From Candidatus Pullilachnospira intestinigallinarum (GTDB lineage: Bacteria; Bacillota; Clostridia; Lachnospirales; Lachnospiraceae): DNA of 64,000 bases. Shown piece after piece: positions 41,973-57,776 of this stretch. How positions within the stretch are numbered: position 1 is the first letter of the stretch; every line of letters starts with the position of its first letter. Both the position numbers and the translations under genes were made by a program. The notes under the pieces are model-generated. The model had not been told where the DNA came from. It worked only from the letters and a program-made list of their open reading frames with translations, and ran no database searches. Location of the stretch: assembly GCA_018711275.1 (NCBI GenBank), contig DVIN01000080.1, forward strand, positions 23,168 through 87,167, in the 5' to 3' direction.

Positions 41973-42001
41973 ATTATAATTCCCGAACACATGTTTGTCA
42001 A
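41973..42001 (-). promoter_or_regulatory. consensus sigma-A promoter overlapped by a fourth LexA box
   Basis: Minus strand TTGACA (42001-41996), 17 nt, TATAAT (41978-41973); box CGAACACATGTTTG at 41984-41997. Confidence 0.65.
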
Positions 42002-42741
42002 TCTGCTTTTTGAAATTTTTGCATCATCTCTCTCACCCGCTCCAGATCCTTCTCCGTATCCACCGAAAGGCTCTCCATATATTCCACAGGGATCAACCGC
42101 AGTTCTTTCCCGTAATCCAGAAACCGCAGCGTGTCGATCCCTTCGATTCTCTCCAGGCGGCCGGGCTTTGAGGCCGCGTAAAAATCCAGCATCTTCCGGT
42201 TGTAGCCGATGATGCCCACATGCTTGTAGTAGGTCACATCCAGGGAACAGAACGGATGGGGAATGGGACGCCGGGACATATAAAGGGCCCGGTAATCCTG
42301 ATCAAAGACTACTTTGATATTGGAATCATCCAGCACCTGCGCCGGATCCGTGACCGGTGTGATAATATTGATTCCGAATTCCCTGTCCAGTGGAATTTCT
42401 CCCCGGGGAATGGCGGCCTTCACCGCTTCACGGGAAATCAGAGGCTCATCTCCGTTCAGCTGGATATAGAAATCCGCCAGTATCTGGCGGGATGCCTCCC
42501 AGAGCCGGTTGGCTGCCGTGGCGTGATACGGTGAAGTCATCACTGCGGGAATTCCTTCCCGGCGGCACGCCATCAGAATCCGTTCATCATCCGTGGCCGC
42601 CCAGACCTGATCCAGACCGGCAATCTGTGAACATCTCTGATATACCCACCAGATCATGGGTTTTTTGCAGATTTCCATCAGCGGTTTTCCGGGCAGCCGC
42701 GAAGAGCCGTACCGGGCGGGTATGATTCCCGCAATTTTCAT
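41998..42741 (-). CDS. KdsB-type cytidylyltransferase (CMP-ulosonic acid / CMP-Kdo synthetase family)
   Basis: IIPARYGSSRLPGKPL..ICKKPMIWWV N-terminus is the KdsB signature; 247 aa. Confidence 0.8.
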   Translation of the reverse strand: MKIAGIIPARYGSSRLPGKPLMEICKKPMIWWVYQRCSQIAGLDQVWAATDDERILMACRREGIPAVMTSPYHATAANRLWEASRQILADFYIQLNGDEPLISREAVKAAIPRGEIPLDREFGINIITPVTDPAQVLDDSNIKVVFDQDYRALYMSRRPIPHPFCSLDVTYYKHVGIIGYNRKMLDFYAASKPGRLERIEGIDTLRFLDYGKELRLIPVEYMESLSVDTEKDLERVREMMQKFQKAD

Positions 42742-42780
42742 TTTGTCCCATCTCCTTTCTGTTGCACGGAACCTTTCCGT

Positions 42781-43587
42781 CTACTGCACCTGATAAAGCA
42801 GCCTCCGCTCTTCACCTCTGCTCTCATAGATCCGTTTTTCCCTGGGGGAAAACAGGAACCTGGGCTTTTCATACCGGGGAAATCCCTCCCGGATTCTCTC
42901 CTCCAGATGTTTCACCGCTTCCGGCGGATCATTGAGATCCAGTCCGGCCAGCACATCGGGACCGTAATCCCACCAGCAAAGCTCTTCCAGCTTTTCAATT
43001 ACCGGCTCCGGAAACCGTTTCTTTATGGGACGCGCGGGAACACCTCCCACCACCGTATAAGGTTCCACATTTCTGGTCACCACCGCTCCTGCTCCCACCA
43101 CAGCCCCGTCGCCGATGGAGACGCCTCGCAGGATTGTGGCGCGTCCGCCAATCCACACGTCATTTCCAATGACGATTCTGGTGCGGGCGGCAAATTCATG
43201 GGTTTTCTGATAACGAAGAATCTTTTCCAGCCAGTCCATATCCTCATACAGATGATGAAAGGACCGGTTCCATCCGCAGTCCATATTCTGAAACACCAGA
43301 TGGGTGCTGACGGATTCCACCGGATGCACCGCGCCCCCGGCGACCACCTCCGGACCGAACAGACCGAAACGGCCGATGGATTCTATAAACCGCATGCTGC
43401 AGTGCTGATTGAAAAACGAAAATGCCCCGATAACCCCTGCGTCCACCCGCACGCCCGAACAAAAACGCACCGGCGCCTCACAGACACATTCCCGGTGGGA
43501 AGCGTAACAGATCTCAGCGACTTCCCCTGTGATGGTAATTCCCTGTCCGCCTTCGGCGGGAAATCGAAAACCGGAATGTATTTTCAT
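42781..43587 (-). CDS. hexapeptide-repeat (LbH) acetyltransferase, XAT/Vat-like
   Basis: AGGAGG before ATG 43587; [48 protein letters not shown] tail. Confidence 0.8.
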
Positions 43588-43630
43588 GACCTGCCTCCTG
43601 TAAATTGATTGCCAAAACACCCGCTGCCGG

Positions 43631-44401
43631 TTACTGACAGGGAATCTGATACAGCAGTGTTTTTCCTTTTTCATCGATCTGCCATACAGAGCAGATTCCC
43701 TGCTGCTGACATACCAGAAATCCCGACTTTTCAAAAGGAACGGGAACCTCCGATGCGGCCGCCCTAGCAGCTTCCTCAAAGAAATCACCGGAGCCGGCAA
43801 GAGCGGCAAAATCCGTTCTGGCAAGCACTGCGCCGCCATAATCCCACCAGGAAAAGGATTTCTGATACCGATATCCGGTGATGTGCGCGGGATTTCCCTG
43901 AAGCAGCGCCCCTTCCGGCACCGATGTCTGGACAAATGCGCCGGGGGCAATCACCGCCCCGTCTCCTACTGTTACACCCTCCAGGATCACGGCTCCATCA
44001 CCGATCCAGACATCACTTCCGATCCGCACAGGCCTGGAGCCGGACAAGGGAACCGGATGTTCCACAGCAAACGCGTCGTCCCACCACCCCTGCCGGCTGC
44101 GGATCATGGCGCATACCGGAAATTCTCCGGTATTCCTGCCGGATACTGCTCCGATCCGGCAGGATTCTCCAATGACCGAAAACCTTCCGATGCTGCGGCA
44201 GCGGCGGATCCGGGTATCACTTCCCACCTGTGTGCCCATTCCCAGAAATTCCGTCTCCAGATGACAGCCTTCCCCCAGGGAAACCGGCGTCTCCAGAAAC
44301 ACTCTGGGACACCGGCGGGGATGGCCCAGCCAAAGGGTGTTCGCAGTCACCACTTTGCCCTTCCCGGTCAGGAGCGGGAAGGTTTCTCTGTCCACCCTCA
44401 T
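43631..44401 (-). CDS. hexapeptide-repeat (LbH) acetyltransferase, paralogue
   Basis: [36 protein letters not shown] tail; start overlaps upstream stop (ATGA). Confidence 0.75.
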
Positions 44402-45993
44402 GGGCGGGAAGACTCCTTTCCCTTCTCCTCCAACTGCCTGCGCAGTTCCTGTTCCATTTCAATATACTCTAGCAGCCGCCGTTCCGTGGCCGCCAGGATC
44501 CCCTCCAGCATCCGGATACGGATCTGATCGTCGCTCATCTCCGCGAAAGAAATCTCCGTGCCCGAGTAAGGCAGCTTTCTGGATTCCCTGATTTTTCTGC
44601 TCTGGCTCATAAGATGCGCCTCCTTACTGTAAAAATACATGGTGTCACAGCCCTCCTCGTCCCAGTATTCCTCCGACCGGCACCATGCTGCCGCCAGCCG
44701 CGTTTTCCGGATGGAAAGGGGCTGCATGGAGAGAAATTTTTCCCTGATCTCCTTCCCGGGCCGGTACATGCCATACTGCCCGTCCGTATTGAGAAACAGC
44801 ACCGCCCGGACATTGGCAGGCAGTTCCCAGGGATCCTGCCCGTTCCCGTCTCCGTCCCAGAAACAGATCACCTCCCCGGACAGTTCCTCCAGGTTCCGGC
44901 TGACGGAAAGATTCCCCGGAAGCTCCCGGTTCCACCGGGAAAGATTTTCAAAGGGCAGCGGATCCGTACCGGCCGTCCAGATGGAGGTAAATCCCAGCGC
45001 TGCGGCCGCCGCCATGGCCATATAATAAATGTGGATGAAATGGAAATTCCGCTCATAGGCGGCATTAGATTTCAGACAGCTGGAAAACTCCTGCCGGATC
45101 AGATTGATGCCGGTGGAGCTGATGGTACAGACCGTTTCCGGAAGCCGTTTAAAGGCCACAGGCAAAAGCTCCGCCGGAAAAATTTCTCTTAAAATCTCTG
45201 CCTCCGGAAACAGCCGGTGATAATACAGAATATCGTCCGGATGCGGCTTGATCAGCACCTTCCTGCCCTCCAGAAAATAGTCAAACAAGGTCTGATAGAT
45301 GAGGATCTGTTCCGGAAACGTCAGCTGTCCCAGATTGGCAAATTGCTGCGTTAGAAGCAGCACGCAATCCGGATCTCCCTCATATACCGGCACCCGGAAG
45401 AACTCCCGGATACTCTGCTTCCATGTATCCCTGAGCTGTCCAAAGGCCTCCATCACCGGGAAATCCACCGCCTTTTCGTCAGAAAATCCTTCCCTCTGCG
45501 ACCTGGCGTCACAGATTTTCTCCGTGATCACCGGATTGGTGTGATCGTACAGATGGTATTTTTCCACCGCCTTCTGCCGGTCAGGGGAACTTTTCCTGTG
45601 AATGTCCGACAGGATCCAGGGGCGGCTTAAGGCCCCGCTGCCGTCCTCAAACATGGCAAAGCAGATTCCGTCCCTGGCCCACTGCACCTGCAGCCAGGTA
45701 TGAATCCCCGCCGCGTAGATTTTGTCGTAATCCTCCGCCCGCCTTCCGGTGACGGAGCGGAATTCCTCCCGCACCTCTTTTACAATTTTATCCTCCTCTC
45801 CCCGGTAGCCGCCGTACCGGAACAGCAGCACCCGGTCAAAAAATCCCCGTTCTTTCGCTTCCCGGTACTGGGGCATCCGCTCCAGAATATAGTTTCCCAG
45901 CAGCAGATCCGCCTCCTCGTCGGCGTGAAAGGTCAGCCGGTGGACGATACATTCCAATATCTGATAAGATGACAATGCCTGATAAAGTATCAC
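44398..45993 (-). CDS. putative CMP-ulosonic-acid transferase (sialyltransferase/GT52-like motifs)
   Basis: GTG 45993 preceded by GGAGGAGGAG and overlapping upstream stop (GTGA); FEDGSG (45634-45651) and KPHP (45238-45249) resemble bacterial sialyltransferase D/E-D/E-G and HP motifs. Confidence 0.45.
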   Translation of the reverse strand: MILYQALSSYQILECIVHRLTFHADEEADLLLGNYILERMPQYREAKERGFFDRVLLFRYGGYRGEEDKIVKEVREEFRSVTGRRAEDYDKIYAAGIHTWLQVQWARDGICFAMFEDGSGALSRPWILSDIHRKSSPDRQKAVEKYHLYDHTNPVITEKICDARSQREGFSDEKAVDFPVMEAFGQLRDTWKQSIREFFRVPVYEGDPDCVLLLTQQFANLGQLTFPEQILIYQTLFDYFLEGRKVLIKPHPDDILYYHRLFPEAEILREIFPAELLPVAFKRLPETVCTISSTGINLIRQEFSSCLKSNAAYERNFHFIHIYYMAMAAAAALGFTSIWTAGTDPLPFENLSRWNRELPGNLSVSRNLEELSGEVICFWDGDGNGQDPWELPANVRAVLFLNTDGQYGMYRPGKEIREKFLSMQPLSIRKTRLAAAWCRSEEYWDEEGCDTMYFYSKEAHLMSQSRKIRESRKLPYSGTEISFAEMSDDQIRIRMLEGILAATERRLLEYIEMEQELRRQLEEKGKESSRP

Positions 45994-48671
45994 AGTTTCT
46001 CCTCCTCCCACAGCTTCGCTTTTTCCATCACCTGACGGACGGATTCCATTACCGCCCGGTCCTGGGTGGCAAACAGATCTCTCCCGAAAATATAGCCTCC
46101 GAAATATTTTCTCAGCCAGGACAGATGTCCGGAAAAATGAAGAAACGGCATATACGCGTCATGGCCGGAGATATCCAGCATATAGGGGAAATCCTGAAAC
46201 CATCCGGTATAATCCCTGACAAAATCCAGACATCCCCGGTGAATCTCCCGGTTATGCTCATAATTTTCCACCTCAGGAATATCATAGAGAATCCGCCCTT
46301 CCCGGTCGAACCCCAGGAAGGTGGGTGTGCAGGACTGGGTCAGAATTTCAAAAAAGAAAGAATTCAGATGACGATTCCCCGCCTGATGCAGATCATGCAG
46401 CTCCTTGTTGTCCAGACTGGAAAACAGATACGTTTCCACCTGCCGTTTCTGCATCATGGCGGCCATATAGGTGTCATTGACATTTCTTGTGGCCGCCAGC
46501 AGACAGCTGATCCGACAGTTCAGATGGTATACTTTCTCCACCAGATAGCGAACCTGCAGCACGTTATTTCCTGACCAGCCCACATCCACCACGGCAGCTC
46601 GCCTGCTGCCCGCCAGCATTCTGGAAAGATAATCCCGTATTGCCTCCTGGTCCGCCTGATAGCAGCCGCACAGCTCCTCCCAGTGATCCACCAGAAGAGA
46701 ATAGACCACCTTTTCATTTGCGGGCGTCAGATATTCCCGGTCGTGAAGCCGGTATTGGGGAAAATATTTTTTCAGCTCTCCGATTCCCACCCGGTCAAAC
46801 AGAGTTCCAATCCGGGATTTATAGAGGGCGTTGGCCTTGTGATGTACCAGCTGCAGCAGATAGGGATGACGGTTCTTGTCCACGGTGGTCTTTACCACCG
46901 GCACCCGGCTCCACAGAACATATTCTGTGGGAAAATCCGGATACATCTGTGTAAAGACTTTTCGGTACAAATCTCCTTCACGGGCCAGAAACAGAATCTT
47001 ATCCAGTCCATGCGCTCTGGCATACCGGTAAATCCACTGGCAGAAACCCATCACATAAAAGCCCGTATACACATACCCTACCTCATAGTACGGACTGAAA
47101 CGCTCCATCCCGGAATGGAGCCTGGCATTGATCACACCCCGGTAAGCGCTTCCCGCCAGATGCGACATTCCCAGGGCCCGATAGGGATTCCCGGCCTCAT
47201 TCACGTTCTGATACAGCCGGGCGGCCAGACCCTTTTTCCGTGCACTGTCATAATCCGAATGAGGATTGTCGCCCACATGGATAAGCTCCAGCCCGTCGTA
47301 CCGATCAGTCAGAATATCGTACAGGCCGCCGTTTCGCTTGGAGCAGTTGTAATCACAGGAGACAAGGACCTGATCCCACTGGTCATAACCACAGGAGGCC
47401 AGGAGCCTGCGCATCCATTCTTCGGGAAGATACATATCCGACACTGCCGCCAGCGTCTTATTCTGCCCCAGAAGCAGCCGGTAAACTGTCTGCATATAGG
47501 GATTGGGCCGGCAAAGGGACAACTCCGTCTCAAATTCCACCCGGGCGCCTTCCCCTGGATCGATTCCCGTTTCCCTGGCCACATATTCATAAATCTTAAG
47601 CAGCGTAACCTCTTTATTTCCCCGCTTCAGATAATTGTCATTTCTGGCCTGCTGCTCCGCGTTTTTCCTGATTTCGCAAAAATCCATGATATCCAGTCTC
47701 TCACCCACCAGCACAAACAGGTCGGAGGGCGCAGAGAAGGGACGCAGAACCAGCGTATCGAAAATATCAAAGGAAATCACCGGATAAGGCATCAGACTTT
47801 TGGCAAAATTCATGGGGGATATCCGGTTGGAAGCTTCTGACTCCGCACCCTTTTCATACAGCCGGCCTCCGGCGCCCGGCAGGGGAAGATGCGTTTTTAC
47901 GGGAGCAGTTTCCCCCAGATCATGGTATTTCCGGTTGTCGCAGGTGTATTTGACCCGGTAACGGTAAATGCCGGGAGCAGGCTGATCATCGGTAAAACAG
48001 GTTTTTGATGTCTGTACCAGAAAGCGAAATTCCCCGTCTTCTCCCGCCCGGTAGACATTATAGTGAAGCGCTTTCGCCGCCCCTTCCCAGAACAGGGATG
48101 CGCCTCCGGCGGGATCCGCCTCGGCCTGCAGACGGTGGGAATGTCTCTCTTTTCTGCTTTTGCCGGTTTTGTTCTGTTCCCGTTGTCCTCCACTGTCCGC
48201 ATAAGCCAGCCGGCGGGCCCAATAGAGATTTTCATCTGCCACGGTGGAGACGGAAAGGATTTCGGAAAAGTCGCTGTAAAAGGAGCCGTCCATGGAAACC
48301 TTAAATTTATAAAAGGTAATGGTCTCCGGCGGCAGGGAGGCCGTTTTATACCGGTTGCTCTCTGTCTTTGCCAGAAAACGGAAATGAACGCCGTCTTCCG
48401 AATGATAAAGATTGTAACAGACCGCGCCGAAAATCTTTTCCATCCGGATTGTGGCGCGTCCGTCTTTGATCCCCAGCAGCTGTATCCGGTGCAGGCGATT
48501 CTTCTGACTTTTGCGGTATTTCCAGGCGAGAAGAGCCAGCACCAGCCAGTGCCTGAGCCGGTGACTCTGATGCTGCGCGAGATGGCCGGTTACATATCGC
48601 TCATAGGCTTTACGGACCCGCTCATTTTTTCTGACGATTTTTTCATACAGACGTTCCTTTAATCCGCTCAT
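45990..48671 (-). CDS. 893-aa protein: two Fn3-like modules + HAD phosphatase-like domain + conserved unknown module (COG5610-like)
   Basis: GAGGTG RBS before ATG 48671; internal repeat YNLYHSEDGVHFRFLAKT / YNVYRAGEDGEFRFLVQT; HAD motifs ISFDIFDTL .. VSD .. SKRNG .. HVGDN; C-module ILFLAREG, VDVGWSG. Confidence 0.6.
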   Translation of the reverse strand: MSGLKERLYEKIVRKNERVRKAYERYVTGHLAQHQSHRLRHWLVLALLAWKYRKSQKNRLHRIQLLGIKDGRATIRMEKIFGAVCYNLYHSEDGVHFRFLAKTESNRYKTASLPPETITFYKFKVSMDGSFYSDFSEILSVSTVADENLYWARRLAYADSGGQREQNKTGKSRKERHSHRLQAEADPAGGASLFWEGAAKALHYNVYRAGEDGEFRFLVQTSKTCFTDDQPAPGIYRYRVKYTCDNRKYHDLGETAPVKTHLPLPGAGGRLYEKGAESEASNRISPMNFAKSLMPYPVISFDIFDTLVLRPFSAPSDLFVLVGERLDIMDFCEIRKNAEQQARNDNYLKRGNKEVTLLKIYEYVARETGIDPGEGARVEFETELSLCRPNPYMQTVYRLLLGQNKTLAAVSDMYLPEEWMRRLLASCGYDQWDQVLVSCDYNCSKRNGGLYDILTDRYDGLELIHVGDNPHSDYDSARKKGLAARLYQNVNEAGNPYRALGMSHLAGSAYRGVINARLHSGMERFSPYYEVGYVYTGFYVMGFCQWIYRYARAHGLDKILFLAREGDLYRKVFTQMYPDFPTEYVLWSRVPVVKTTVDKNRHPYLLQLVHHKANALYKSRIGTLFDRVGIGELKKYFPQYRLHDREYLTPANEKVVYSLLVDHWEELCGCYQADQEAIRDYLSRMLAGSRRAAVVDVGWSGNNVLQVRYLVEKVYHLNCRISCLLAATRNVNDTYMAAMMQKRQVETYLFSSLDNKELHDLHQAGNRHLNSFFFEILTQSCTPTFLGFDREGRILYDIPEVENYEHNREIHRGCLDFVRDYTGWFQDFPYMLDISGHDAYMPFLHFSGHLSWLRKYFGGYIFGRDLFATQDRAVMESVRQVMEKAKLWEEEKL

Positions 48672-48682
48672 TTTTTCACCTC

Positions 48683-49201
48683 TTACGCGCCCCACAGCCT
48701 GCGGGCGCAATCTTCCAGAATTCCCTTTGCCGAAAGCACCAGTTCCGCAAATTCCCGTACGGCGCCCTCTCCGCCCCGCGCTTTCAATACCAGGGAACAC
48801 CGGTTCCGGACGCCTGCGGCCGCATCGGAGGGACAGGCACTGACAGCTGCCAGGGACATGGCTGCCAGATCGTTGAAATCATCGCCAAGATAGGCGGTCT
48901 CCTGCCCGGAGAGGTTCTGTTCCCTCAGAAACTGTTCCAGAAAGGTCCGTTTATCTTTTACCCCCTGGAATACCTGGCTGATTCCCAGCTCCCTGGCGCG
49001 CAGAGCGACACAGGAACTTTCTCTTCCGGTGAGGATCACCGGGAGTACGCCGCCTTCCCGAAGAAGCAGAATTCCCGCTCCGTCGCGGATGCTGAATTTT
49101 TTCATTTCCGTTCCCCGGCTGTCCAGATACACGCCTCCGTCGGTCATGGTGCCGTCCACGTCTAAAACCAGACAGCGGATGGCGGAAAGTACCTCTCTCA
49201 T
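48683..49201 (-). CDS. KdsC-family HAD-IIIA phosphatase (ulosonate-phosphate phosphatase)
   Basis: LVLDVDGTMTDG, ILTGRES, YLGDDFNDL; 172 aa. Confidence 0.8.
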   Translation of the reverse strand: MREVLSAIRCLVLDVDGTMTDGGVYLDSRGTEMKKFSIRDGAGILLLREGGVLPVILTGRESSCVALRARELGISQVFQGVKDKRTFLEQFLREQNLSGQETAYLGDDFNDLAAMSLAAVSACPSDAAAGVRNRCSLVLKARGGEGAVREFAELVLSAKGILEDCARRLWGA

Positions 49202-50909: not shown

Positions 50910-52907
50910 TCATTCCACAAACATACTGGTTTCCCAGGAAAAATACTGCTCCAGTTTTTTCCGGTATCCGGCATCCGACAGTACTGCCCGGATGGGCGCG
51001 TAAGCATCCCTCCCGCTGATTTCCTGTCCCTTAAGACCGCCGAAATGGCGCTTCCAGTCGGAGGCGAAGTCCCAGATTCCCTGCTGGATTCTCCGGATTT
51101 TTTCTGACTGCGGCTCCGGATTGCCGAAACGAAACTGCACGTTGCCTTCCGCATCCCTCGCGAATCCCAGAAAAGTGGGAGACGGCGAGGCCGCCAGAAG
51201 CTCCATCACGAGATTATCTCCCCTGACAGGATCATGGAATTCCCACAGCCGGCGGTTAAAAACGGGAGAGAAAAGGTACGTTTCCACCTGCCCTGTGAAC
51301 AGCTCCGGATAAAGAGCGGCAAAATCTCCGTTTTTCCGTGGCGCCGACGCCGCGAGAAACGTATGGATCGTTGTATTCGGGCAGACTTTCCCCGCCACAT
51401 GGGCCAGCGCCCAGGGACCGGTTCCCAGCCACCCGATGTCCACTGCGGCAGCCCGGCTGCATCCGGCAAGCATACCGGCCAGATATTCCTCTGCCGCTTC
51501 CATTTCCTGACGGTATATCTCCAACACCAGCGGGAAATGGCTCTGCAGCCAGACTTCATACGCCTCCGCCGTCTGAGCGGTAAGCGGCGTTTTTTCATCG
51601 AGCCCCGTATCGCGGCTGGCGCCCGCCAGCAGACCGGACAGATCCATGGAGGCAAAGCAGTCTGCCGCCGTATATCCCCGATTGATTTTATCCCGCAGAA
51701 ACCGCCGGAAAAATTCCTGTCGGCGTACATCCGCCGAAAGCTTCAGGGCCACCCGCCGGGACCAGTATACATAGCGGGTGTCACTGTCCGGATACAGCAG
51801 TTGATAGACTTTGCGGACAATTTCCCCGTCTCTGGCAAGAAACAGCAGACGGTCGATTCTTTTCTCCTGAACCTTTCTGTGAAGAAACCGGCAAAATCCC
51901 ACCGCCCAGAGACCGCCGTACAGATAGCCGAATTCATACAGCGGGGAATAACGCCGGCCGCGTCCGTGCATCCTCTGGCTGGCCAGCCCCCGGTACATGC
52001 TTCCCACCACCGGCGACATCCGGCGGATCCGGAAAGGATAACCCATAAGACGGGCAGAAGGAATCAGAAGAGACGCTACCCCTCTCTTTCGGGCTTTTTC
52101 CCCATCCGACACCGCATCGTCTCCCACATGAATCCAGCGGCAGCCGGAACCGAACCAGAGACGGATCACATCAAAAAGTGTTCCCTGACCTTTGGAAGCG
52201 TTCCGGTCACAGGATACAAAACATCTGTCAAATACTCCCAGGCCCGCCTCCAAAAGAAGGCGGCGGATCCGTTCCTCTCCCAGATACATATCACTGGCGA
52301 TCACCACCTGTTTTCCGGCCCTTCGAAGAGCCGCAAGCACCGGAAGAAACCGGGGATTGGCATAACAGAACTGCCGCTCCGTCTCCCATTCCGCCAGCAT
52401 TCCCTCCCCCCTGTCAATTCCGGTCTGCGCGGACAGAACCTCCCAGATTTCCTCCAGCGTCACCTCCCCGCATCCGCCTGCCTGCCGGTTTCGTCTGCGC
52501 GCCTCCTCCTCCGCCCGGATACGCAGCGCGCGAAAATCCGGGCAGGAAAGCTTCAGGCCCACAAAATAGAAAAGATCTGCCGGTTCTTCCACCGGGCGCA
52601 GAAGAAGGGTATCAAACACATCAAAGGAAATCACGTCAAATTCCATCAGCCGTCGCATCATGGACCGGGTTGAAGGAACCTGAAACCGCCCGGACTCCCG
52701 CAGCAAAAGCCGGGCCGGATTATTTTCTCTGCTCCAGCCCGCTGTTTTTGAAAATCCCGGCAGCCGATTCGCCAGAAGACAGAAACAGCCTTTTACAAGC
52801 CCCGGCCATCCGGGATTTTTTCGCCGAAAATCCTGCCACCAGACGGCGGCTTCCCACTCCTGCCGGGTCAGTACCCCAAACAAAGCCTTCTTTAACCACT
52901 GAAACAT
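50910..52907 (-). CDS. 665-aa HAD phosphatase-like domain + conserved unknown module (COG5610-like), paralogue 2
   Basis: ISFDVFDTL .. ASD .. SKGQG .. HVGDD; C-module LLFLARDG, VDIGWLG, VETYLFS, SPTFLGF shared with the 893-aa protein. Confidence 0.65.
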   Translation of the reverse strand: MFQWLKKALFGVLTRQEWEAAVWWQDFRRKNPGWPGLVKGCFCLLANRLPGFSKTAGWSRENNPARLLLRESGRFQVPSTRSMMRRLMEFDVISFDVFDTLLLRPVEEPADLFYFVGLKLSCPDFRALRIRAEEEARRRNRQAGGCGEVTLEEIWEVLSAQTGIDRGEGMLAEWETERQFCYANPRFLPVLAALRRAGKQVVIASDMYLGEERIRRLLLEAGLGVFDRCFVSCDRNASKGQGTLFDVIRLWFGSGCRWIHVGDDAVSDGEKARKRGVASLLIPSARLMGYPFRIRRMSPVVGSMYRGLASQRMHGRGRRYSPLYEFGYLYGGLWAVGFCRFLHRKVQEKRIDRLLFLARDGEIVRKVYQLLYPDSDTRYVYWSRRVALKLSADVRRQEFFRRFLRDKINRGYTAADCFASMDLSGLLAGASRDTGLDEKTPLTAQTAEAYEVWLQSHFPLVLEIYRQEMEAAEEYLAGMLAGCSRAAAVDIGWLGTGPWALAHVAGKVCPNTTIHTFLAASAPRKNGDFAALYPELFTGQVETYLFSPVFNRRLWEFHDPVRGDNLVMELLAASPSPTFLGFARDAEGNVQFRFGNPEPQSEKIRRIQQGIWDFASDWKRHFGGLKGQEISGRDAYAPIRAVLSDAGYRKKLEQYFSWETSMFVE

Positions 52908-52941: not shown

Positions 52942-53724
52942 TTAGAGTACCGGCGTCTGTTTTTGGCTCCTTCCGTATGCCAGATAAGCGTCGCAGACCT
53001 GACGGGGATCGCCGTCCATCAAAAGTTTTCCCTTCTCCAGCCACAGTACGCGGCTGCAGGTGGACAGGACGGCGGATACCGAATGGGATACCAGCAGCAC
53101 CGCGGTGCCGCCCCGGATAATCTGACGGATCCGCTCCTCGCTTTTCTGCCGGAAAAAGGCGTCGCCCACACTGAGCACCTCGTCCAGAATCAGCACTCCC
53201 GGCAGGGTGCGGGCGGTGGCAATGGCAAATCCCAGACGGGACACCATGCCGGAAGAAAAATTTTTGATTTTCTGATCCATAAATCCCTCCAGCTGGGCAA
53301 AGCTTACGATTTCCCGATATTTGGCGGCGATTTCCTTCTTCCCATAACCCAGAAGCGCCGCGTTCAGATACACATTTTCCCTGGCCGTCAGCTCCCGGTC
53401 AAAGCCGCACCCCAGGGTCAGCAGATGCATCCGGCCCGGGTCCGCCACCACTCGTCCGCCGGTGGGCGGCATGGCGCCGGATATGATTTTCAGCAGGGTG
53501 CTCTTCCCGGAACCGTTGGTTCCCACGATCCCCACCACCTGTCCGGGAAATACGTCAAAGGAAACCCCGGACAGGGCCGCAAACCGCCGCACCGGATGGT
53601 TCCCGGTAAACCGCCGGATCAGATATTCCTTCAGACTGTCCGCCCTTTCCACGGGCATTTGAAATTCCATGGTGACATTTCTTGCAGAAATCACCGGGCG
53701 GTCCTTTTCCACGCCATTTGCCAT
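52942..53724 (-). CDS. ABC transporter ATP-binding protein, Wzt/TagH type (no C-terminal carbohydrate-binding domain)
   Basis: GGAGGTGG before ATG 53724; GTNGSGKST, FSSGMVSRLGFA, LILDEVLSVGD. Confidence 0.9.
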   Translation of the reverse strand: MANGVEKDRPVISARNVTMEFQMPVERADSLKEYLIRRFTGNHPVRRFAALSGVSFDVFPGQVVGIVGTNGSGKSTLLKIISGAMPPTGGRVVADPGRMHLLTLGCGFDRELTARENVYLNAALLGYGKKEIAAKYREIVSFAQLEGFMDQKIKNFSSGMVSRLGFAIATARTLPGVLILDEVLSVGDAFFRQKSEERIRQIIRGGTAVLLVSHSVSAVLSTCSRVLWLEKGKLLMDGDPRQVCDAYLAYGRSQKQTPVL

Positions 53725-53737: not shown

Positions 53738-54490
53738 CTACAGCCGCTGGATGATTCTGCTCTGATTTCTGAAAAAACAGAGACTTCCCGCCGCAAAAAT
53801 CACGGCCGCCCACAACGCCATCCGCACCCACAGTCCCGCCGATGGCACCTGGCCGTACATCATGCAGTCCCTGGCCGCCGCGATATAACAGTAAACGGGA
53901 TTTTCCCCCACAATCGCCTGCATGGCCGGGGGCAGCAGCGTTACCGGATAAAAAAGCGCCGATAGATACATCCACAGGGTCAGCACCACCCCATACAAGT
54001 GGCGGACGTCGCCGAAATAGGCATAGAGGATGGAAAGGAAAAATCCCACGCCCATGGAAAACAGTCCCAGAAGCGCCACAATGGGAAGAAACAGCACCAT
54101 CCGCCAGGTGGGCCGGATGGCAAAAACCGCCAGGATTACCCCGTAGGCGGCCAGAGAATAGATAAGATTCACCAGCGCGGCCAATACCCGGGATACGGGA
54201 AACACCGCCCGTGGAAAGCTGGTCTGTAAAAGCAACGTCCGGTTGTCTGCCAGTGCGCTCATAGCCGCGTTGGTGGAGCCCGTAAAGAAATTCCACAGAA
54301 TCAGGCCGGTCACGTAATACACCGGATAATTTTCAATGGATTTCCGGAACATGGTGGAAAACACCAGCGACAGCACCGCCATGGACAGCAGCGGATTCAG
54401 CACGCTCCAGAGAATTCCCAGCCGGGACCGGCTGTATTTTCGTTTCAATTCCCGAAGAATCAGCTGCCCGGTCACAAAAGAATATTTCAT
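53738..54490 (-). CDS. ABC-2-type polysaccharide/teichoic-acid export permease (Wzm/TagG type)
   Basis: RELKRKYSRSRLGILWSVLNPLL N-terminus, 6 TM; directly upstream of the ATPase. Confidence 0.85.
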   Translation of the reverse strand: MKYSFVTGQLILRELKRKYSRSRLGILWSVLNPLLSMAVLSLVFSTMFRKSIENYPVYYVTGLILWNFFTGSTNAAMSALADNRTLLLQTSFPRAVFPVSRVLAALVNLIYSLAAYGVILAVFAIRPTWRMVLFLPIVALLGLFSMGVGFFLSILYAYFGDVRHLYGVVLTLWMYLSALFYPVTLLPPAMQAIVGENPVYCYIAAARDCMMYGQVPSAGLWVRMALWAAVIFAAGSLCFFRNQSRIIQRL

Positions 54491-55791
54491 GACGATTCCC
54501 TCTTTTTGCCTGTAATGATCCGGAAAACGGATTTTTTGAGATATAAGGCATACTTATACAGCCGGATTTCGGCCAGTTGGCGCCGGACGTGTTTTCCCCG
54601 CCGGACCACACTGCCCTCCATCCAGGCGCTCTCCCCCGGCGGACGTCCCGCAAGCTGCGCCGCCGCCAGAACCTTTGTCAAAAGATGGCCGCCGGAAAGC
54701 AGAAACGGATCACCGGAGGGGACAGGAGCCAGTTCCCTGCCGGGCTCCTCCAGCACGTCATCGGTGAATGTTAAGCTGCCGAAGGCATGGGCCTGTCGGA
54801 GAGTGGGTGTTCCCATAAAAGGCGCAAGGAGGCGTTCCAGCTTTCCCGCCGGGCAAAGTTCCCAGGCCCGGATGGACAGCGGAAGCCTCTCCGCCTTCTG
54901 GCGGGCCAGGGAGACCACCGCATCCTCCACCACATGGAGCGCCGGAAAATTTTCCCCGAGAGCCGGACGGTACCGGGGAACAAAACATCCCTGCTTCGTC
55001 CTCTGATACCCTTCCGTCATTCCCCGGGGCGCGCCGAATACACACTCAAACAGGCTGTTGGAGAAGTATGCTTTCCTCCTTATCTTTCCCCGAACCGGAA
55101 AATAATACGCATGGTATAAATTTTCCTGTACGCCCTTTGGCAGCTGATACAGTCCGAAATAAAAACCGTTGATTTCCCTGTGAAATCCTTCCTTCTCCAG
55201 CAGGACCTTCAACGTCTGCTGCAGGCTGCCGGTCCATCCGCTGTCCGCCACCGCCCAGCGGATGTCGTCAAAAAGGCCCTCCTGCCGCAGATAACCGCAG
55301 ACGCCGGGAAGCGCCTTTTGGGCGTGGGATTCCACCATCTGCCAGAATGGCGGACAGTGAAAAAAAAGCGGCTTCAGCCGCCGGATTTCCTGCCGGGTGA
55401 GAATTTTATCCAGAGGGACAGATACCCCGGCTGCCTGCGCCGCCCCAAGCGCTTCCTGGCGGTCAAGACCTGCCCGGGCCAGAATTTTCCCCAGGGTCAC
55501 ATCGATGCCGTCCAGAAAAATCTGATCCAGGCTTTCCTTTCCCAGCAGGGCGAAAGAAGGCAGCCGCAGCGCGTACCGGGAACATTCCAGATAGCGGCAT
55601 TCGATGCGGGGGTGGCGGTTTTCGGCCAGGATACATCCCGCCCGGTACATCATCCACCCGTCCCTGGCCAGAAAATAAATTCGCCGGATCCCCAGGCGCT
55701 CTGCCTCAGACAAGATCCATTTGACGTACTCCACCATCACAGGAGCCAGTATTTTACCGGCGGTATCCCTGACTGTGTCCATCGGTTCCAT
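54487..55791 (-). CDS. 434-aa protein consisting only of the conserved unknown module (paralogue 3, no HAD domain)
   Basis: RIYFLARDG and VADSGWTG motifs collinear with the C-modules of the 893- and 665-aa proteins; stop overlaps permease start (ATGA). Confidence 0.55.
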   Translation of the reverse strand: MEPMDTVRDTAGKILAPVMVEYVKWILSEAERLGIRRIYFLARDGWMMYRAGCILAENRHPRIECRYLECSRYALRLPSFALLGKESLDQIFLDGIDVTLGKILARAGLDRQEALGAAQAAGVSVPLDKILTRQEIRRLKPLFFHCPPFWQMVESHAQKALPGVCGYLRQEGLFDDIRWAVADSGWTGSLQQTLKVLLEKEGFHREINGFYFGLYQLPKGVQENLYHAYYFPVRGKIRRKAYFSNSLFECVFGAPRGMTEGYQRTKQGCFVPRYRPALGENFPALHVVEDAVVSLARQKAERLPLSIRAWELCPAGKLERLLAPFMGTPTLRQAHAFGSLTFTDDVLEEPGRELAPVPSGDPFLLSGGHLLTKVLAAAQLAGRPPGESAWMEGSVVRRGKHVRRQLAEIRLYKYALYLKKSVFRIITGKKRESS

Positions 55792-56608
55792 GATTTTTCC
55801 GCTCCATTTCCCTTTTTATCCGGTAGAGCAGGCCGGAGGGAACCAGCGCCGCCGCCAGCGGACGGAGAATCTGCAGCCGCGTCCTCCACCCCGTAAGTCC
55901 CAGCATGGCAAATCCTTTTTTCCGCAGTCTCATCTCGTCCATCCGGTAACGCAGCTTCCGCTTTTTGAAGGAGGCCCGCTCCTGCCGGTAATAAAACAGT
56001 TCTTTCTGAAGATTATACCCATAACAGTCCGATCCATGCAGCCGCATGAAAAATTCGTAATCCTCACAGCGCAGAGTACGGCGTGATTCACAGTAGCCGC
56101 CGAACTGTTCAAAAACACTTTTCCGGAACATCACCGAGGGATGAATATACGGAGAATGAGGGAGAAAATCTTCTTTCTTTGGCCTTTTTGGCATTTTCCG
56201 ATGACCGCGGATCCTGCCGCCGTCCAGAATTCCCGCACAGCATCCCACAAAACCGTAGGCCGGATGCGTCTCAAGAAACCGCAGCTGTTTTTCCAGCCGC
56301 TCCGGCAGGGAAATATCGTCGTCATCCATCCGGGCGATATACGCTCCCCGGGCCAGTCGGACGCAGGTATTGAGCCCTGCGGCCAATCCCCGGTTTTGTT
56401 CCTTCCGGATCAGCCGGATCCGCGGATCCTGCCGGGCAATTTTCTGAAGCTCGCGGTATGTCCTCTGCCCGGAGCCGTCATCCAGAATCAGAAACTCAAA
56501 ATCCCGGAAGGTCTGGCTCAGAATGGAATCCACCGCCAGACGCAGATTTTTAAAACTGGCCGGTTGATACACACTCATAATCACACTGATTTTCACGGAT
56601 TTTCTCAA
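55754..56608 (-). CDS. family 2 glycosyltransferase
   Basis: GGGAGGTG + TTG 56608; ISVIMSVYQP..SILSQTFRDFEFLILDDGS, ARMDDDD. Confidence 0.9.
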   Translation of the reverse strand: MRKSVKISVIMSVYQPASFKNLRLAVDSILSQTFRDFEFLILDDGSGQRTYRELQKIARQDPRIRLIRKEQNRGLAAGLNTCVRLARGAYIARMDDDDISLPERLEKQLRFLETHPAYGFVGCCAGILDGGRIRGHRKMPKRPKKEDFLPHSPYIHPSVMFRKSVFEQFGGYCESRRTLRCEDYEFFMRLHGSDCYGYNLQKELFYYRQERASFKKRKLRYRMDEMRLRKKGFAMLGLTGWRTRLQILRPLAAALVPSGLLYRIKREMERKNHGTDGHSQGYRR

Positions 56609-57776
56609 GTTTTTGCACCTCCCGGTTCAGTATCTGCGGAAAGGTGGTTTCGTATACCCCGCACATGATCCGGGCGGTATTCCGGCTGGAGAAACGGGGA
56701 ATATCCCGAAAAGCACGCGCGCCCAACCGGTTCCGGAGCCCGGCGTCTTCTGCCAGCAGACGGATGGCATGGGCGAACTCCGCTACATCCTCCCCGGCGC
56801 ATAAAAGTCCGTTTTCTCCGTGGCGCAGATATTCCCTGGTTCCCCGGTTGTCCGCCCCGATCACTGCCCGGCGGCAGGCCATGGCCTCCAGCGGAGCCAT
56901 CCCCAGTCCCTCCCGGATGGAGGGGAAAAGAAAAATATCAATTCCCTGCAGAAGCACTTCCAGATCCTTCCGATATCCCAGAAAATGCACCCGCCCGGCA
57001 AGTCCGAGACGTTCCGTCATCTCTTTGAGCGCCTTTCGGTACGGCCCTTCCCCGCAGATAAAATACTGAAAATCCAGATCCTTTACCATGGCAAGGGCCG
57101 CAAGCACCGTCTGGTAATTCTTGTCCTGATCCAGACGGGCCGCCGTCAGGAATCCCAGCTGTCCCTTCTCAAGTCCCAGCCGCCTCCTGGCTTCTTTGCG
57201 AAGCCAGGGACGGAAGGCATACCGCTCCAGATCCAGCCCCACTCCCGGAATTTTCACCACACTTCCGCCCCTTTTCAGCCGGAAGCGGCCGGCGACCCGG
57301 GCGTCCTCCTCATTGATGGTCACCAGCACATCCGTAAACCGCGCCAGAAAACGCTCCGCCTGATAATACAGAAGCCAGTTCTTCGCGGGCGCTCCCTGGT
57401 AAAAATGAAATCCATGGGCGGTATAAATCACCTTCACCCGCCTTTTTGCCAGCCGTCCGGCCAACCGGCCCAGCAGCGCCCCCACCGGCGTATGACAGTG
57501 TACCACATCGATCTCCTTCTCATCGATCAGCCGCACCAGCATCTTCAGCGCCTTCCGGTTTTCCCTGAACCGCCAGGGGGAACGGCAGATGGGAAGCGGA
57601 TGGGTATGGATGCCCTTCTTTTCAAAAAAATTTTCTCCGATGGAAAAATCCGGCGCGTCAAAATTGGAAGCAAAATGGATTTCTGCTCCCATCCGTGTAA
57701 GAATCCGGATATTCTCCTGCTCAAACTGCCATAAAAACTCGCTGACCGTCGCCACAATCAAAATTCGGAAACTCAT
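56550..57776 (-). CDS. family 4 (GT-B) glycosyltransferase, first gene of operon
   Basis: AGGGAGGAAG before ATG 57776; EGLGMAPLEAMACRRAVIG..ENG (E-x7-E). Confidence 0.9.
   Translation of the reverse strand: MSFRILIVATVSEFLWQFEQENIRILTRMGAEIHFASNFDAPDFSIGENFFEKKGIHTHPLPICRSPWRFRENRKALKMLVRLIDEKEIDVVHCHTPVGALLGRLAGRLAKRRVKVIYTAHGFHFYQGAPAKNWLLYYQAERFLARFTDVLVTINEEDARVAGRFRLKRGGSVVKIPGVGLDLERYAFRPWLRKEARRRLGLEKGQLGFLTAARLDQDKNYQTVLAALAMVKDLDFQYFICGEGPYRKALKEMTERLGLAGRVHFLGYRKDLEVLLQGIDIFLFPSIREGLGMAPLEAMACRRAVIGADNRGTREYLRHGENGLLCAGEDVAEFAHAIRLLAEDAGLRNRLGARAFRDIPRFSSRNTARIMCGVYETTFPQILNREVQKLEKIRENQCDYECVSTGQF

Follow-up and report, generated by a model that had tools for sequence, protein, structure and literature searches.

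A minus-strand run of 13 genes in the 64-kb window (the whole stretch of DNA analysed here) probably directs the synthesis of an O-acetylated, acidic surface glycan of ribofuranose (Ribf) and a Kdo-like sugar, and its ABC transporter-dependent export, in a monoderm Lachnospiraceae cell. The combination of ribofuranose with Kdo-like chemistry was known until now from Gram-negative capsules, whereas the genome studied here is Gram-positive. The host is a Lachnospiraceae MAG from the gut, Candidatus Pullilachnospira. A wall hydrolase with choline-binding repeats and an M23 domain is encoded near the operon, and we consider the host monoderm on the basis of these repeats and the taxon name. The DNA inspected, about 85 kb of the contig, represents part of the genome.

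Organisation of the operon

From 57776 to 41998 the minus-strand genes follow each other without interruption, as found alike in the list of open reading frames, an independent gene call on the contig and a direct reading of the junctions. The 13 genes form a single operon, listed below from its 5′ boundary:

57895..57950, minus strand: hairpin resembling an intrinsic terminator, GATCCCGCAGG...CCTGCGGGATC and then a run of T (sequence read)
56550..57776, minus strand: GT4 glycosyltransferase, 408 aa (Pfam Glycos_transf_1 4.8e-39, Glyco_transf_4 1.7e-17)
55754..56608, minus strand: GT2 glycosyltransferase, EpsE-like, 284 aa, TTG start (Pfam Glycos_transf_2 7.3e-34)
54487..55791, minus strand: stand-alone gPRT/CriT-like module, 434 aa (phmmer against PDB)
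53738..54490, minus strand: Wzm-type ABC-2 permease, 250 aa (Pfam ABC2_membrane 2.5e-18)
52942..53724, minus strand: Wzt/TagH-type ABC ATPase, 260 aa (Pfam ABC_tran 2.5e-20)
50910..52907, minus strand: predicted dual-domain ribofuranosyltransferase, 665 aa, N-terminal HAD PRP/CrpP-like and C-terminal gPRT/CriT-like (PDB matches)
49198..50781, minus strand: aldolase fusion, 527 aa (Pfam HMGL-like 1.2e-14; PDB 3dxi, E 1.6e-27)
48683..49201, minus strand: KdsC/YrbI-family HAD-IIIA phosphatase, 172 aa (TIGR01670 130.9 bits, cut-off 106.95)
45990..48671, minus strand: second predicted dual-domain ribofuranosyltransferase, 893 aa, N-terminal extension, PRP (HAD) and gPRT (paralogy)
44398..45993, minus strand: sialyltransferase-like GT-B protein, 531 aa, GTG start (PF07388)
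43631..44401, minus strand: left-handed beta-helix (LbH) acyltransferase, 256 aa (Pfam Hexapep 1.4e-15)
42781..43587, minus strand: second LbH acetyltransferase, Vat/CatB/MAT-like, 268 aa (Pfam Hexapep 1.2e-9)
41998..42741, minus strand: KdsB-family cytidylyltransferase, 247 aa (CTP_transf_3 3.7e-39; NF003952 227 bits, cut-off 193)

At the junctions, neighbouring genes share an ATGA three times (44398-44401, 49198-49201 and 54487-54490) and a GTGA once (45990-45993), and two further pairs overlap by 38 nt (55754-55791) and 59 nt (56550-56608). A GGAGG-like ribosome-binding site precedes the start codon of every gene, and the widest intergenic gap is 128 nt. An earlier note on this DNA had described a tightly coupled, all-minus-strand cluster with these overlaps, all of which were reproduced; it counted 12 genes, but its own list has 13 items. 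The gene order and families that it proposed were recovered with Pfam and NCBIfam, except that the labels Fn3, GT52 and PF01973 were not confirmed for the window proteins.

The hairpin at 57895..57950, where a terminator scan returned a partial match on the minus strand (57948-57934), closes the upstream transcription unit and sets the 5′ boundary of the operon. The first gene therefore cannot start at 57962, and a longer, 470-aa version of it was rejected. Its start at 57776 was set by the gene call and the ribosome-binding site, and the starts of the Wzt ATPase and the 268-aa protein by the gene call. In agreement with the earlier note, profile annotation and gene calling found no priming transferase, LCP ligase, KdsA, KdsD or NeuB among the annotated window ORFs; the window likewise holds no gene for anchor synthesis.

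Predicted ribofuranosyltransferase modules

About half of the coding capacity had been regarded as having no assigned function, including three 'unknown modules'. Judging from Bcs3 and 7SHG matches and from paralogy, these modules are PRPP-dependent glycan phosphoribosyltransferase (gPRT/CriT) domains, and in two proteins the domain is joined to its partner HAD phosphatase, PRP/CrpP. A HAD phosphoribose phosphatase (PRP/CrpP) is likewise fused to a gPRT in H. influenzae Bcs3 and PDB 7SHG, and transfer of Ribf-5-P from PRPP followed by dephosphorylation has been described in ABC transporter-dependent systems (PMC10299916, PMC11231755, PMC11294581).

Residues 19-212 of the 434-aa protein aligned with Bcs3 656-848, the CriT catalytic domain as delimited in PMC10299916 (phmmer against PDB, E 3.8e-7). 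This protein, which has no phosphatase domain, is expected to use PRPP as the donor of ribofuranose-5-phosphate. The 665-aa protein matched Bcs3 382-713 (E 6.7e-11) and the 'ribofuranosyl transferase' 7SHG (E 7e-9); its FDVFDT motif aligned with FDIFDT of Bcs3 (D386) and its FLARDG motif with FISRDG (D680). For the 893-aa protein, no direct sequence match was obtained in the PDB and the HAD-IA matches in NCBIfam were weak. It is a paralogue of the 665-aa protein (38% identity over 585 aa, E 8e-113), and its function is predicted from this paralogy. The FLARDG and D-x-GW-x-G motifs are common to all three proteins. In the N-terminal extension of about 290 aa of the 893-aa protein, Pfam did not confirm the Fn3 domain suggested earlier; instead, we found two beta-rich internal repeats of about 80 aa (30% mutual identity, E 7e-10) with a sub-threshold beta-sandwich match to GH85_C. 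The gPRT and PRP assignments thus make ribofuranose from PRPP a major predicted component, missed in the earlier note, and the predicted product an O-acetylated glycan of Ribf and a Kdo-like sugar.

A predicted route to a CMP-activated acidic sugar

Residues 1 to about 300 of the aldolase fusion form a DRE-TIM/HMGL-like metal-dependent pyruvate aldolase domain of the DmpG-like type, in line with the HMGL-like profile proposed as a check. Its AF2 model (pLDDT 89) gave DmpG-type aldolases as Foldseek matches, and the metal-site residues D8, R12, H192 and H194 are invariant. The fusion also matched the NCBIfam models of IPMS and citramalate synthase. Residues from about 340 to 527 form an MptE/DUF115-like Rossmann domain (pLDDT 87.5), with the M. 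jannaschii HPPK/MptE as top fold match (E 8.8e-4), followed by ST8SiaIII; the TM-score was about 0.5 to the pyrophosphokinase and to the sialyltransferase alike. PF01973 (MptE-like), also proposed as a check, did not match the window protein itself but matched 5 of the 18 homologues of this domain. We infer that the fusion is a PEP-independent ulosonic acid(-phosphate) synthase of an uncharacterised type that replaces the usual synthase.

The cytidylyltransferase fell within the KdsB subfamily (NF003952) and the phosphatase within the KdsC/YrbI family (TIGR01670), as the earlier note had suggested. Among solved structures, the former comes closest to K-CKS/KpsU, the CMP-Kdo synthetase of the E. 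coli capsule (1gq9; E 2.2e-46, 39.5% identity), and we predict it to be a synthetase of CMP-Kdo or a close analogue. No kdsB equivalog model was passed (TIGR00466, 137 bits, cut-off 155). The phosphatase, predicted to act on an ulosonate-phosphate, scored about 136 bits with each of the KdsC and Kdn-9-P phosphatase equivalogs, both below cut-off. Since the KdsB assignment holds at subfamily level and the two phosphatase equivalogs are inseparable, both a Kdo analogue and a nonulosonic acid are conceivable as the acidic sugar.

Transfer, acetylation and export

The 531-aa protein had been noted for sialyltransferase motifs: GT52 stayed below threshold, but the polysialyltransferase family PF07388 (A-2_8-polyST) matched above its gathering score (28.7 bits, cut-off 23.3). 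Most homologues belong to PF07388 and/or PF07922. The motif classes D/E-D/E-G, HP and SS are present; in the family alignment KPHPDD and SSTG are invariant, whereas FEDGSG is conserved as a consensus, with only the E and the second G strictly invariant. The C-terminal tail is coiled-coil-like, with invariant I493, L496, E497, G498, A502, E504, R506 and Y510. We predict that this protein is a transferase that uses a CMP-ulosonate and either polymerises the chain or terminates it.

Among the acetyltransferases, the 256-aa protein matched NCBIfam sugar/Vat-type models and is a predicted glycan O-acetyltransferase; the 268-aa protein matched TIGR03308 and Vat-family models. The GT4 enzyme probably acts in synthesis of an adaptor or linkage region on a lipid-linked primer. 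The GT2 enzyme scored 205 bits with EpsE (NCBIfam), the permease matched galactan Wzm/RfbD and KpsM models, and the ATPase, which has no carbohydrate-binding extension, matched TagH (1.8e-49 and 2.1e-47), all below cut-off. The Wzm and Wzt families, with the host evidence, support the earlier proposal of an ABC transporter-dependent glycopolymer operon in a monoderm Clostridia genome.

Related loci in other genomes

At least 442 species genomes, predominantly of Lachnospiraceae, encode relatives of the aldolase fusion; C. leptum DSM 753 and Eisenbergiella tayi DSM 26961 are among the carriers. We surveyed the linkage of aldolase, KdsC-like phosphatase and cytidylyltransferase across 80 genomes. 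A phosphatase homologue was found in 77 of the 82 aldolase-fusion loci and directly followed the fusion in 54 of the 75 gene-called loci; in 44 of these 75, a cytidylyltransferase lay directly upstream of the aldolase (38 of a 226-aa type, six of the KdsB type). Searching for the gene set in other genomes, a check proposed earlier, revealed an 11-13-gene version of the cluster in Blautia, Dorea, Limivivens and Pullilachnospira MAGs. In eight orthologous clusters a Bac_transf priming gene adjoins the aldolase, at the exact site of the 128-nt gap in the window, which itself lacks this gene.

Proposed assembly and alternative explanations

Family membership, domain architecture, conserved motifs and gene linkage are observed here; for the substrates, the order of steps, the nature of the ulosonic acid and the polymer structure, we propose the following scheme. 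A phosphoglycosyltransferase encoded outside the window would prime polyprenyl phosphate, on which GT4 and GT2 would build a short adaptor. The three gPRT modules would move ribofuranose-5-phosphate from PRPP, giving beta-ribofuranose, and the PRP domains on two of them would strip the 5-phosphate to permit chain extension; the 434-aa module would borrow a PRP in trans, or its ribose would stay phosphorylated. The aldolase domain may condense pyruvate with an aldose phosphate, after which the phosphatase would remove the phosphate and the KdsB/KpsU-like enzyme would use CTP to form a CMP-linked, Kdo-like 2-keto-3-deoxy acid for transfer by the 531-aa protein. The MptE-like domain may act as a kinase that provides the aldose phosphate, or as a second ulosonate transferase of a Maf/CstII-like type. 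The glycan, assembled in the cytoplasm and O-acetylated by both LbH enzymes, would be exported by Wzm/Wzt and displayed on the cell, attached to the wall or retained on lipid through factors encoded outside the window, or possibly as a capsule.

It is rather unlikely that the fusion is no ulosonic acid synthase and that Kdo-8-P comes from canonical KdsD and KdsA elsewhere in the genome. The fusion would then serve another pyruvate-derived substituent, sugar salvage or cleavage, or act as a Maf-like transferase alone. Both enzymes could lie beyond the roughly 85 kb inspected, which would give the aldolase a different role; pyruvate aldolases are reversible and frequently catabolic, and HMGL-like enzymes (compare the IPMS and citramalate synthase matches) also perform Claisen condensations. 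Moreover, given the predicted alpha-Kdo transferase of E. coli K15 with its Maf/CstII-like fold, the C-terminal domain alone could account for the place of the gene in such clusters (PMC7387560). However, the near-universal linkage of fusion, phosphatase and cytidylyltransferase argues for a synthase, and KdsA, NeuB and SIS isomerase are absent from the 30 commonest neighbour families of these loci. A KdsC-family phosphatase requires a phosphorylated ulosonate, for which the loci offer no other source. To our knowledge, monoderm Lachnospiraceae lack LPS, so KdsA would have no housekeeping role.

We also consider it unlikely that the ulosonic acid is a single non-reducing-end cap that ends a ribofuranose/hexose polymer and licenses export, on the model of WbbB, which adds a beta-Kdo cap to Klebsiella O12-type O antigens, with the 531-aa protein as terminator or molecular ruler. 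Its conserved helical, heptad-like C-terminus recalls coiled-coil terminators, the three gPRT modules alone could make a ribofuranan (Ribf polymerisation is described for Salmonella STM0726; PMC11294581), and export in ABC-dependent systems requires termination (PMC11231755). On the other hand, the 260-aa Wzt lacks a carbohydrate-binding module that could recognise such a cap, and a make-and-activate pathway with two candidate transferase domains would be costly for one residue per chain. A role in protein glycosylation, in which flagellin, an S-layer protein or an adhesin would receive an ulosonic acid in Maf style and no polysaccharide would be built, is very improbable. The MptE/DUF115 superfamily does include the Maf flagellin nonulosonic acid transferases (PMC7387560), but a polysaccharide exporter sits mid-operon beside three gPRT modules, GT4 and GT2, a transferase that primes polyprenyl phosphate occurs in orthologous clusters, and the 64-kb window yielded no genes for flagella or an S-layer.

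The glycan that we favour, with ribofuranose and a Kdo-like acid, resembles the Rib-Kdo K antigens of E. coli, although the host of the operon is monoderm. The earlier remark that an ulosonic acid is unusual in a Gram-positive wall polymer applies to Firmicutes, whereas Streptomyces offers a precedent in its Kdn-containing teichulosonic acids.

Operon structure

Thirteen genes run unbroken on the minus strand from 57776 to 41998. A mechanical ORF list and an independent gene call agree on this run; the latter was made on the public contig ENA ERZ27234803 k141_183159 (149.8 kb), which includes the window. The earlier note spoke of a 12-gene operon, although its own list also counts thirteen. 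The overlaps it described were all seen when the junctions were read directly, namely ATGA at 44398-44401, 49198-49201 and 54487-54490, GTGA at 45990-45993, and two longer ones, 38 nt at 55754-55791 and 59 nt at 56550-56608. The other gaps measure 11-128 nt, and a GGAGG-type ribosome-binding site lies ahead of each start codon. At about 57948-57900, the upstream unit ends in a strong hairpin with a T run after it. The first start codon of the operon was therefore placed at 57776 and not at 57962, where a longer ORF begins. Searches with Pfam and NCBIfam recovered the labels GT4, GT2, Wzm, Wzt, two hexapeptide (LbH) acyltransferases, HMGL-like aldolase, HAD phosphatase and cytidylyltransferase. 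The genes considered in detail are the following.

57776 (-), start of the first gene, GT4 glycosyltransferase
54487..55791 (-), 434-aa protein with a predicted phosphoribosyltransferase (gPRT/CriT) module
50910..52907 (-), 665-aa protein, HAD phosphatase (PRP) and predicted gPRT module
49198..50781 (-), 527-aa aldolase fusion
48683..49201 (-), KdsC-like phosphatase
45990..48671 (-), 893-aa protein, N-terminal extension, PRP and predicted gPRT module
44398..45993 (-), 531-aa sialyltransferase-like protein
41998 (-), end of the last gene, KdsB-like cytidylyltransferase

Predicted ribofuranosyltransferase modules

The 665-aa, 434-aa and 893-aa proteins, previously listed as unknown modules, were identified as gPRT modules by matches to solved enzymes and by paralogy. 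In a PDB sequence search, the 665-aa protein matched residues 382-713 of Haemophilus influenzae Bcs3 (E = 6.7e-11) and the "ribofuranosyl transferase" 7SHG (E = 7e-9), and the 434-aa protein matched Bcs3 residues 656-848 (E = 3.8e-7). No match was found for the 893-aa protein in this search; its link to the PRP-gPRT family runs only via the 665-aa protein, to which it is 38% identical across both domains (E = 8e-113). The HAD nucleophile motifs FDVFDT and FDIFDT align with FDIFDT of Bcs3, which holds D386, and the CriT motifs FLARDG and FLAREG align with FISRDG, which holds D680. Mutation of either D386 or D680 inactivates Bcs3, in which E818 is the third CriT residue (PMC10299916). The operon is thus predicted from these alignments to encode three gPRT modules, two of them with a cognate PRP.

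The known PRP-gPRT enzymes (the prototype 7SHG from Thermobacillus composti, those of Klebsiella O4/O7, STM0726 of Salmonella T1 and the CrpP-CriT portion of Bcs3) share with the operon proteins an N-terminal HAD phosphatase and a C-terminal phosphoribosyltransferase, the FDxFDT nucleophile and RDG motifs, and an ABC-transporter-dependent locus. In the published mechanism, Ribf-5-P is transferred from PRPP and is then 5-dephosphorylated; it has so far been described in ABC-transporter-dependent systems, namely Klebsiella O4/O7, Salmonella T1, Hib and C. jejuni (PMC11231755; PMC11294581). The operon proteins show only low similarity in sequence to the solved enzymes (E = 1e-7 to 1e-11). Unlike the known systems, the operon has three modules, one of which lacks a phosphatase, and one of its proteins bears a duplicated, beta-rich N-terminal extension. 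This extension adds about 290 residues to the 893-aa protein and includes a basic, hydrophobic N-terminal helix followed, at residues ~60-270, by two tandem beta-rich repeats of about 80 aa (30% identical, E = 7e-10). An "Fn3" label previously given to this protein was not confirmed; what was found in its place are these repeats. The repeats could bind glycans or mediate membrane association, and might in this way make up for the absence of a carbohydrate-binding module from the short Wzt.

Activating enzyme, phosphatase and sialyltransferase-like protein

Residues 4-213 of the 247-aa cytidylyltransferase match CTP_transf_3 (PF02348, 3.7e-39). The protein clears the cut-off of NF003952, a KdsB subfamily model (227 bits vs 193), and falls short of those of NF009905 (240.5 vs 255), NF003950 (201.7 vs 234) and the equivalog TIGR00466 (137.4 vs 155.2). 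All 13 of its PDB matches are CMP-Kdo synthetases, the best being the E. coli capsule enzyme KpsU (1gq9, E = 2.2e-46, 39.5% identity), and the PseF model gives just 30 bits. Its nearest characterised relatives are CMP-Kdo synthetases and not NeuA, PseF or LegF, and it is predicted to activate Kdo or a close analogue. The KdsC-like phosphatase passes the family model TIGR01670 (130.9 bits vs 106.95) and lies below both equivalogs, KdsC/Kdo-8-P phosphatase (136.9 vs 208) and Kdn-9-P phosphatase (136.3 vs 180). The KdsB and KdsC family assignments of the earlier note are thereby upheld. Its interpretation, an ABC-exported glycopolymer with a CMP-activated ulosonic acid, was right in outline and incomplete in that it missed the ribofuranosyltransferases.

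Bacterial GT-B sialyltransferases are recognised by their D/E-D/E-G and HP motifs. The 531-aa protein matches the polysialyltransferase family PF07388 (28.7 bits, gathering threshold 23.3), with GT52 under its threshold, and most of its 126 detectable homologues bear PF07388 and/or PF07922. A nine-member alignment of the family shows SSTG and the HP motif, as KPHPDD, to be invariant, and the D/E-D/E-G motif to be conserved as FEDGSG. The PF07388 match and the D/E-D/E-G, HP and SS motifs are features in common with the GT38, GT52 and GT80 sialyl- and polysialyltransferases and with the HP-motif retaining beta-Kdo transferases. A PDB sequence search returned no solved structure, either with the single sequence or with a profile. 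We read the protein as a CMP-ulosonate-dependent transferase. It differs from GT-B sialyltransferases in an additional middle domain, a helical tail and its probable donor, a CMP-Kdo-like sugar in place of CMP-Neu5Ac. With its conserved tail, the protein may act as a chain terminator.

The aldolase fusion

The N-terminal domain of the 527-aa protein is a DRE-TIM/HMGL-like barrel (PF00682, 1.2e-14). The Bacteroides vulgatus structure 3dxi, entitled "N-terminal domain of a putative aldolase", is its closest solved relative (E = 1.6e-27). The AlphaFold model of the fusion (pLDDT 89) superposes on DmpG-type 4-hydroxy-2-oxovalerate aldolases, and Foldseek returned 3dxi, 4jn6 and 1nvm at E = 1e-13 to 1e-18. 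The metal-site residues D8, H192 and H194, as well as R12, are invariant in 60 homologues.

A distinct Rossmann-like domain follows, made up of the last ~190 residues. The full-length fold search was swamped by the TIM barrel, and this domain was modelled apart, from an 18-sequence alignment. The resulting model (pLDDT 87.5) best matched the Methanocaldococcus jannaschii pyrophosphokinase (HPPK) MptE (E = 8.8e-4, TM 0.48), followed by SteA and then human ST8SiaIII (E = 0.012, TM 0.51). PF01973 (MptE-like) does not match the fusion of the window itself and matches five of 18 homologues of the C-terminal domain (best E = 4.9e-5); a profile of the domain against PDB sequences gave only noise. Together, the Pfam matches on homologues and the fold search suggest that the domain is MptE-like and belongs to the MptE/DUF115 superfamily. 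Membership of the CstII (GT42) or Maf families was considered and dropped, the CstII and Maf structures not being among the top 50 fold matches. The domain may be a kinase or a CMP-sugar transferase; a precedent for the latter is ORF4 of E. coli K15, predicted to be an alpha-Kdo transferase and Maf/CstII-like in fold (PMC7387560). In a library of protein representatives, the domain was found in some 1,400 clusters (1,366 at E <= 1e-3), and in every full-length match among the 150 listed it sits at the C-terminal end of a fusion-sized protein of ~525 aa. A literature search on the aldolase/cytidylyltransferase combination, on DUF115 with an aldolase and on 3DXI yielded nothing relevant.

Distribution of the cassette

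In a scan with one genome per species, relatives of the aldolase fusion were found in at least 442 loci (species-level genomes). The carriers are mostly Lachnospiraceae (Blautia, Eisenbergiella, Dorea) and include the cultured strains Clostridium leptum DSM 753 and Eisenbergiella tayi DSM 26961. We compared 82 loci, 80 fetched and two from a contig look-up. A KdsC-like gene is present in 77 of the 82, usually directly downstream of the fusion gene. KdsA, NeuB and SIS isomerases are absent from the 30 most frequent neighbour families of the fusion loci. Given this absence and the linkage of fusion, KdsC-like and cytidylyltransferase genes, we propose that the fusion acts as the ulosonic-acid synthase in a portable cassette that makes, dephosphorylates and activates the sugar.

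The earlier note suggested looking for the same gene set in other genomes. About 13-16 loci have essentially this cluster, complete with gPRTs, Wzm/Wzt, KdsB and the sialyltransferase-like gene; their MAGs, some of them from the chicken gut, span several genera. Eight of these loci (L005, L006, L008, L009, L011-L013 and L019) harbour a priming phosphoglycosyltransferase gene between the 665-aa and aldolase genes, for instance at 8644-10014 of L005 (456 aa, Bac_transf PF02397, 5.4e-63). In the window, only a 128-nt gap (50782-50909) is found in the same place. From the position of Bac_transf in the orthologous clusters, we infer that the pathway is primed on polyprenol, the primer of this genome being supplied from elsewhere. 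The 128-nt gap indicates that the gene was lost, or never gained, in the lineage of the window. No kdsA, kdsD, LCP or priming gene was found beyond the window ends, on the source contig past the low-coordinate end and on a 4.7-kb scaffold of another sample at the other end.

In the majority of the loci, a different type of polysaccharide cluster surrounds the same cassette. The core of these loci (L018-L082) encodes a 461-aa protein, a 226-aa CTP_transf_3 protein, the aldolase fusion and the KdsC-like phosphatase, as at 7909-12111 of L044 from E. tayi DSM 26961. Frequent neighbours are UDP-GlcNAc 2-epimerase, GFO oxidoreductase, DegT aminotransferase, AsnB-like amidotransferase, GT4, GT8 and an MsbA-like ABC protein. 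These loci may encode a sialic-acid-like pathway without NeuB. The 461-aa protein has invariant RPHP...TGNSS motifs and no Pfam match, and its family had no match in a PDB sequence search. The spacing from HP to SS is 41 residues in both the 461-aa and the 531-aa proteins, which is only suggestive; hhalign found no relation between the two families (probability 0.4%).

Comparison with known surface-glycan pathways

Taken together, the parts of the operon are members or probable members of the KdsB, KdsC/YrbI, PRP-gPRT, GT-B sialyltransferase-like, DRE-TIM aldolase and ABC-2 families. The repeat-unit structures of the E. coli ribose-Kdo K antigens and their O-acetylation provide the background for the closest comparison. 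The predicted set of Ribf, Kdo and O-acetyl groups equals that of the group 2 Rib-Kdo antigens K13/K20/K23, K16, K74 and K95, and cytoplasmic assembly, ABC-2 export and a cytidylyltransferase nearest to the capsule-specific KpsU are further common features. Kdo is present in K12, K16, K20, K23, K74 and K95, and references for the ribose-Kdo antigens have been compiled (PMC7387560). The operon differs from group 2 loci in its monoderm host, in having no KdsA in view and a seemingly aldolase-derived acidic sugar, and in orthologous clusters that prime with Bac_transf and not with a phosphatidylglycerol-(Kdo)n anchor. A KpsM/KpsT-type exporter is present at the family level only (ABC2_membrane and ABC_tran; the KpsM model gives 34 bits, far under its cut-off). 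Since no operon protein matches the beta-Kdo linker transferases KpsC/KpsS (Capsule_synth) or the outer-envelope export proteins KpsE/KpsD in Pfam or NCBIfam, the operon is not a group 2 capsule locus, though it is group 2-like in the cytoplasm. Wzt resembles TagH (162-169 bits, under the cut-off), and this TagGH-like transporter is the sole part of a wall teichoic acid pathway. A teichoic-acid pathway is also rejected, because neither a TagF-type polyol-phosphate polymerase nor the priming enzymes TagO and TagA nor an LCP ligase is found in the operon or among the annotated ORFs of the window. The operon works like a group 2 capsule or O-antigen-type ABC pathway. As to the host, NCBI assigns the identical aldolase protein to a Candidatus Pullilachnospira MAG. 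A diderm (LPS) origin of the KdsB-like gene was dismissed on the taxon name and on a wall hydrolase with choline-binding repeats. A monoderm Lachnospiraceae fits both these repeats, which are carried by an M23 peptidase, and the gene content; the window also encodes proA, miaB, mutS, mutL and PBP2.

The acidic sugar has a precedent on Gram-positive walls in the Kdn-galactose teichulosonic acids of Streptomyces, which are likewise phosphate-free glycopolymers with an ulosonic acid (PMC11481543). Those belong to another phylum, and contain Kdn, a nonulosonic acid, and no ribofuranose. In the literature searched, we found no report of an ulosonic acid on a Firmicutes wall, of a Rib-Kdo glycan in a monoderm or of Kdo in Gram-positives or Lachnospiraceae. 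With the KdsD-KdsA-KdsC-KdsB pathway and the animal sialic-acid pathway (kinase, 9-phosphate synthase, phosphatase, CMP synthetase), the cassette shares a KdsC-type phosphatase followed by CTP_transf_3, and the logic of condensing on a phosphorylated aldose before dephosphorylation. In contrast to these pathways, the proposed condensing enzyme is a metal-dependent DRE-TIM pyruvate aldolase with an MptE-like domain and not a PEP-dependent KdsA or NeuB, and there is no isomerase.

Proposed pathway and its implications

Going by the orthologous clusters, polyprenyl phosphate would be primed by an enzyme encoded outside the window, and the GT4 and GT2 enzymes would build an adaptor. The gPRT modules, assigned by family and motifs, would then add Ribf-5-P from PRPP, which the fused PRPs would dephosphorylate. 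The enzyme families and the gene linkage of the cassette are observed; as for its substrates, the DRE-TIM domain would condense pyruvate with an aldose phosphate, the KdsC-like phosphatase would dephosphorylate the product and the KdsB/KpsU-like enzyme would activate it with CMP. The sialyltransferase-like protein, and possibly the MptE-like domain as well, would transfer the acidic sugar. Finally, the two LbH enzymes would O-acetylate the glycan and Wzm/Wzt would export it. The predicted product resembles the E. coli ribose-Kdo K antigens.

The finding is real. Of most interest in it is the aldolase-based cassette, still uncharacterised and directly testable by cheap in vitro assays. We consider it possible, if somewhat short of probable, that the fusion, the KdsC-like phosphatase and the cytidylyltransferase constitute an unrecognised route to CMP-ulosonates, dependent on pyruvate and not on PEP, that replaces KdsA or NeuB in hundreds of gut Lachnospiraceae and their relatives. 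If so, this widespread fusion family would represent a novel kind of ulosonic-acid synthase, one that makes Kdo in the operon described here and perhaps sialic-acid-like sugars in the commoner loci with a 2-epimerase. Many Gram-positive commensals would then carry unnoticed Kdo- or sialic-like acids on their surfaces, and genome-based inference of Kdo or sialic-acid capacity would change, as present-day screens rely on KdsA or NeuB. Here the acid would be joined with PRPP-derived ribofuranose in a "Gram-negative-style" Rib-Kdo polymer. Acidic glycans of the Rib-Kdo type are a hallmark of group 2 capsules in Gram-negatives and have a bearing on vaccines and host mimicry. If the prediction holds, they would also occur on monoderm gut commensals, built by the recently discovered PRPP-dependent ribofuranosyltransferases.

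Genomic surroundings

A 661-aa protein at 34387-36372 (+) combines many choline-binding-type cell-wall repeats (PspA/PspC-like matches) with a C-terminal M23 peptidoglycan endopeptidase. The ligand of this wall-anchored hydrolase could be a wall glycopolymer. The PBP2/MrdA homologue at 18224-21157 (+) is 977 aa long, and its best match pairs residues 622-952 with model positions 242-593; it appears to have several hundred additional N-terminal residues. Between the upstream PNP_UDP_1/GNAT gene and the operon terminator, the stretch 57975-58150 (-) reads like a GNAT C-terminus (...LLTGSGKEETLRFYRKAGYNSKDKTAFIKWL*), with no gene called, and is a probable pseudogene fragment.

No Rfam family is found within 39-61 kb of the window and no tRNA in the window, so that no riboswitch or tRNA-linked island boundary was recognised. 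A perfect sigma-70 consensus (TTGACA-17-TATAAT, 42001-41973, -) overlaps the end of kdsB. Downstream of it lie a small ORF (41504-41923) and a tyrosine integrase (39872-41041), and G+C falls to 0.44. An integrase and small ORF flank the cluster in L004 too, and an integrase homologue is found at the cluster end in the Blautia MAG L013. The operon may lie on, or beside, an integrative element.
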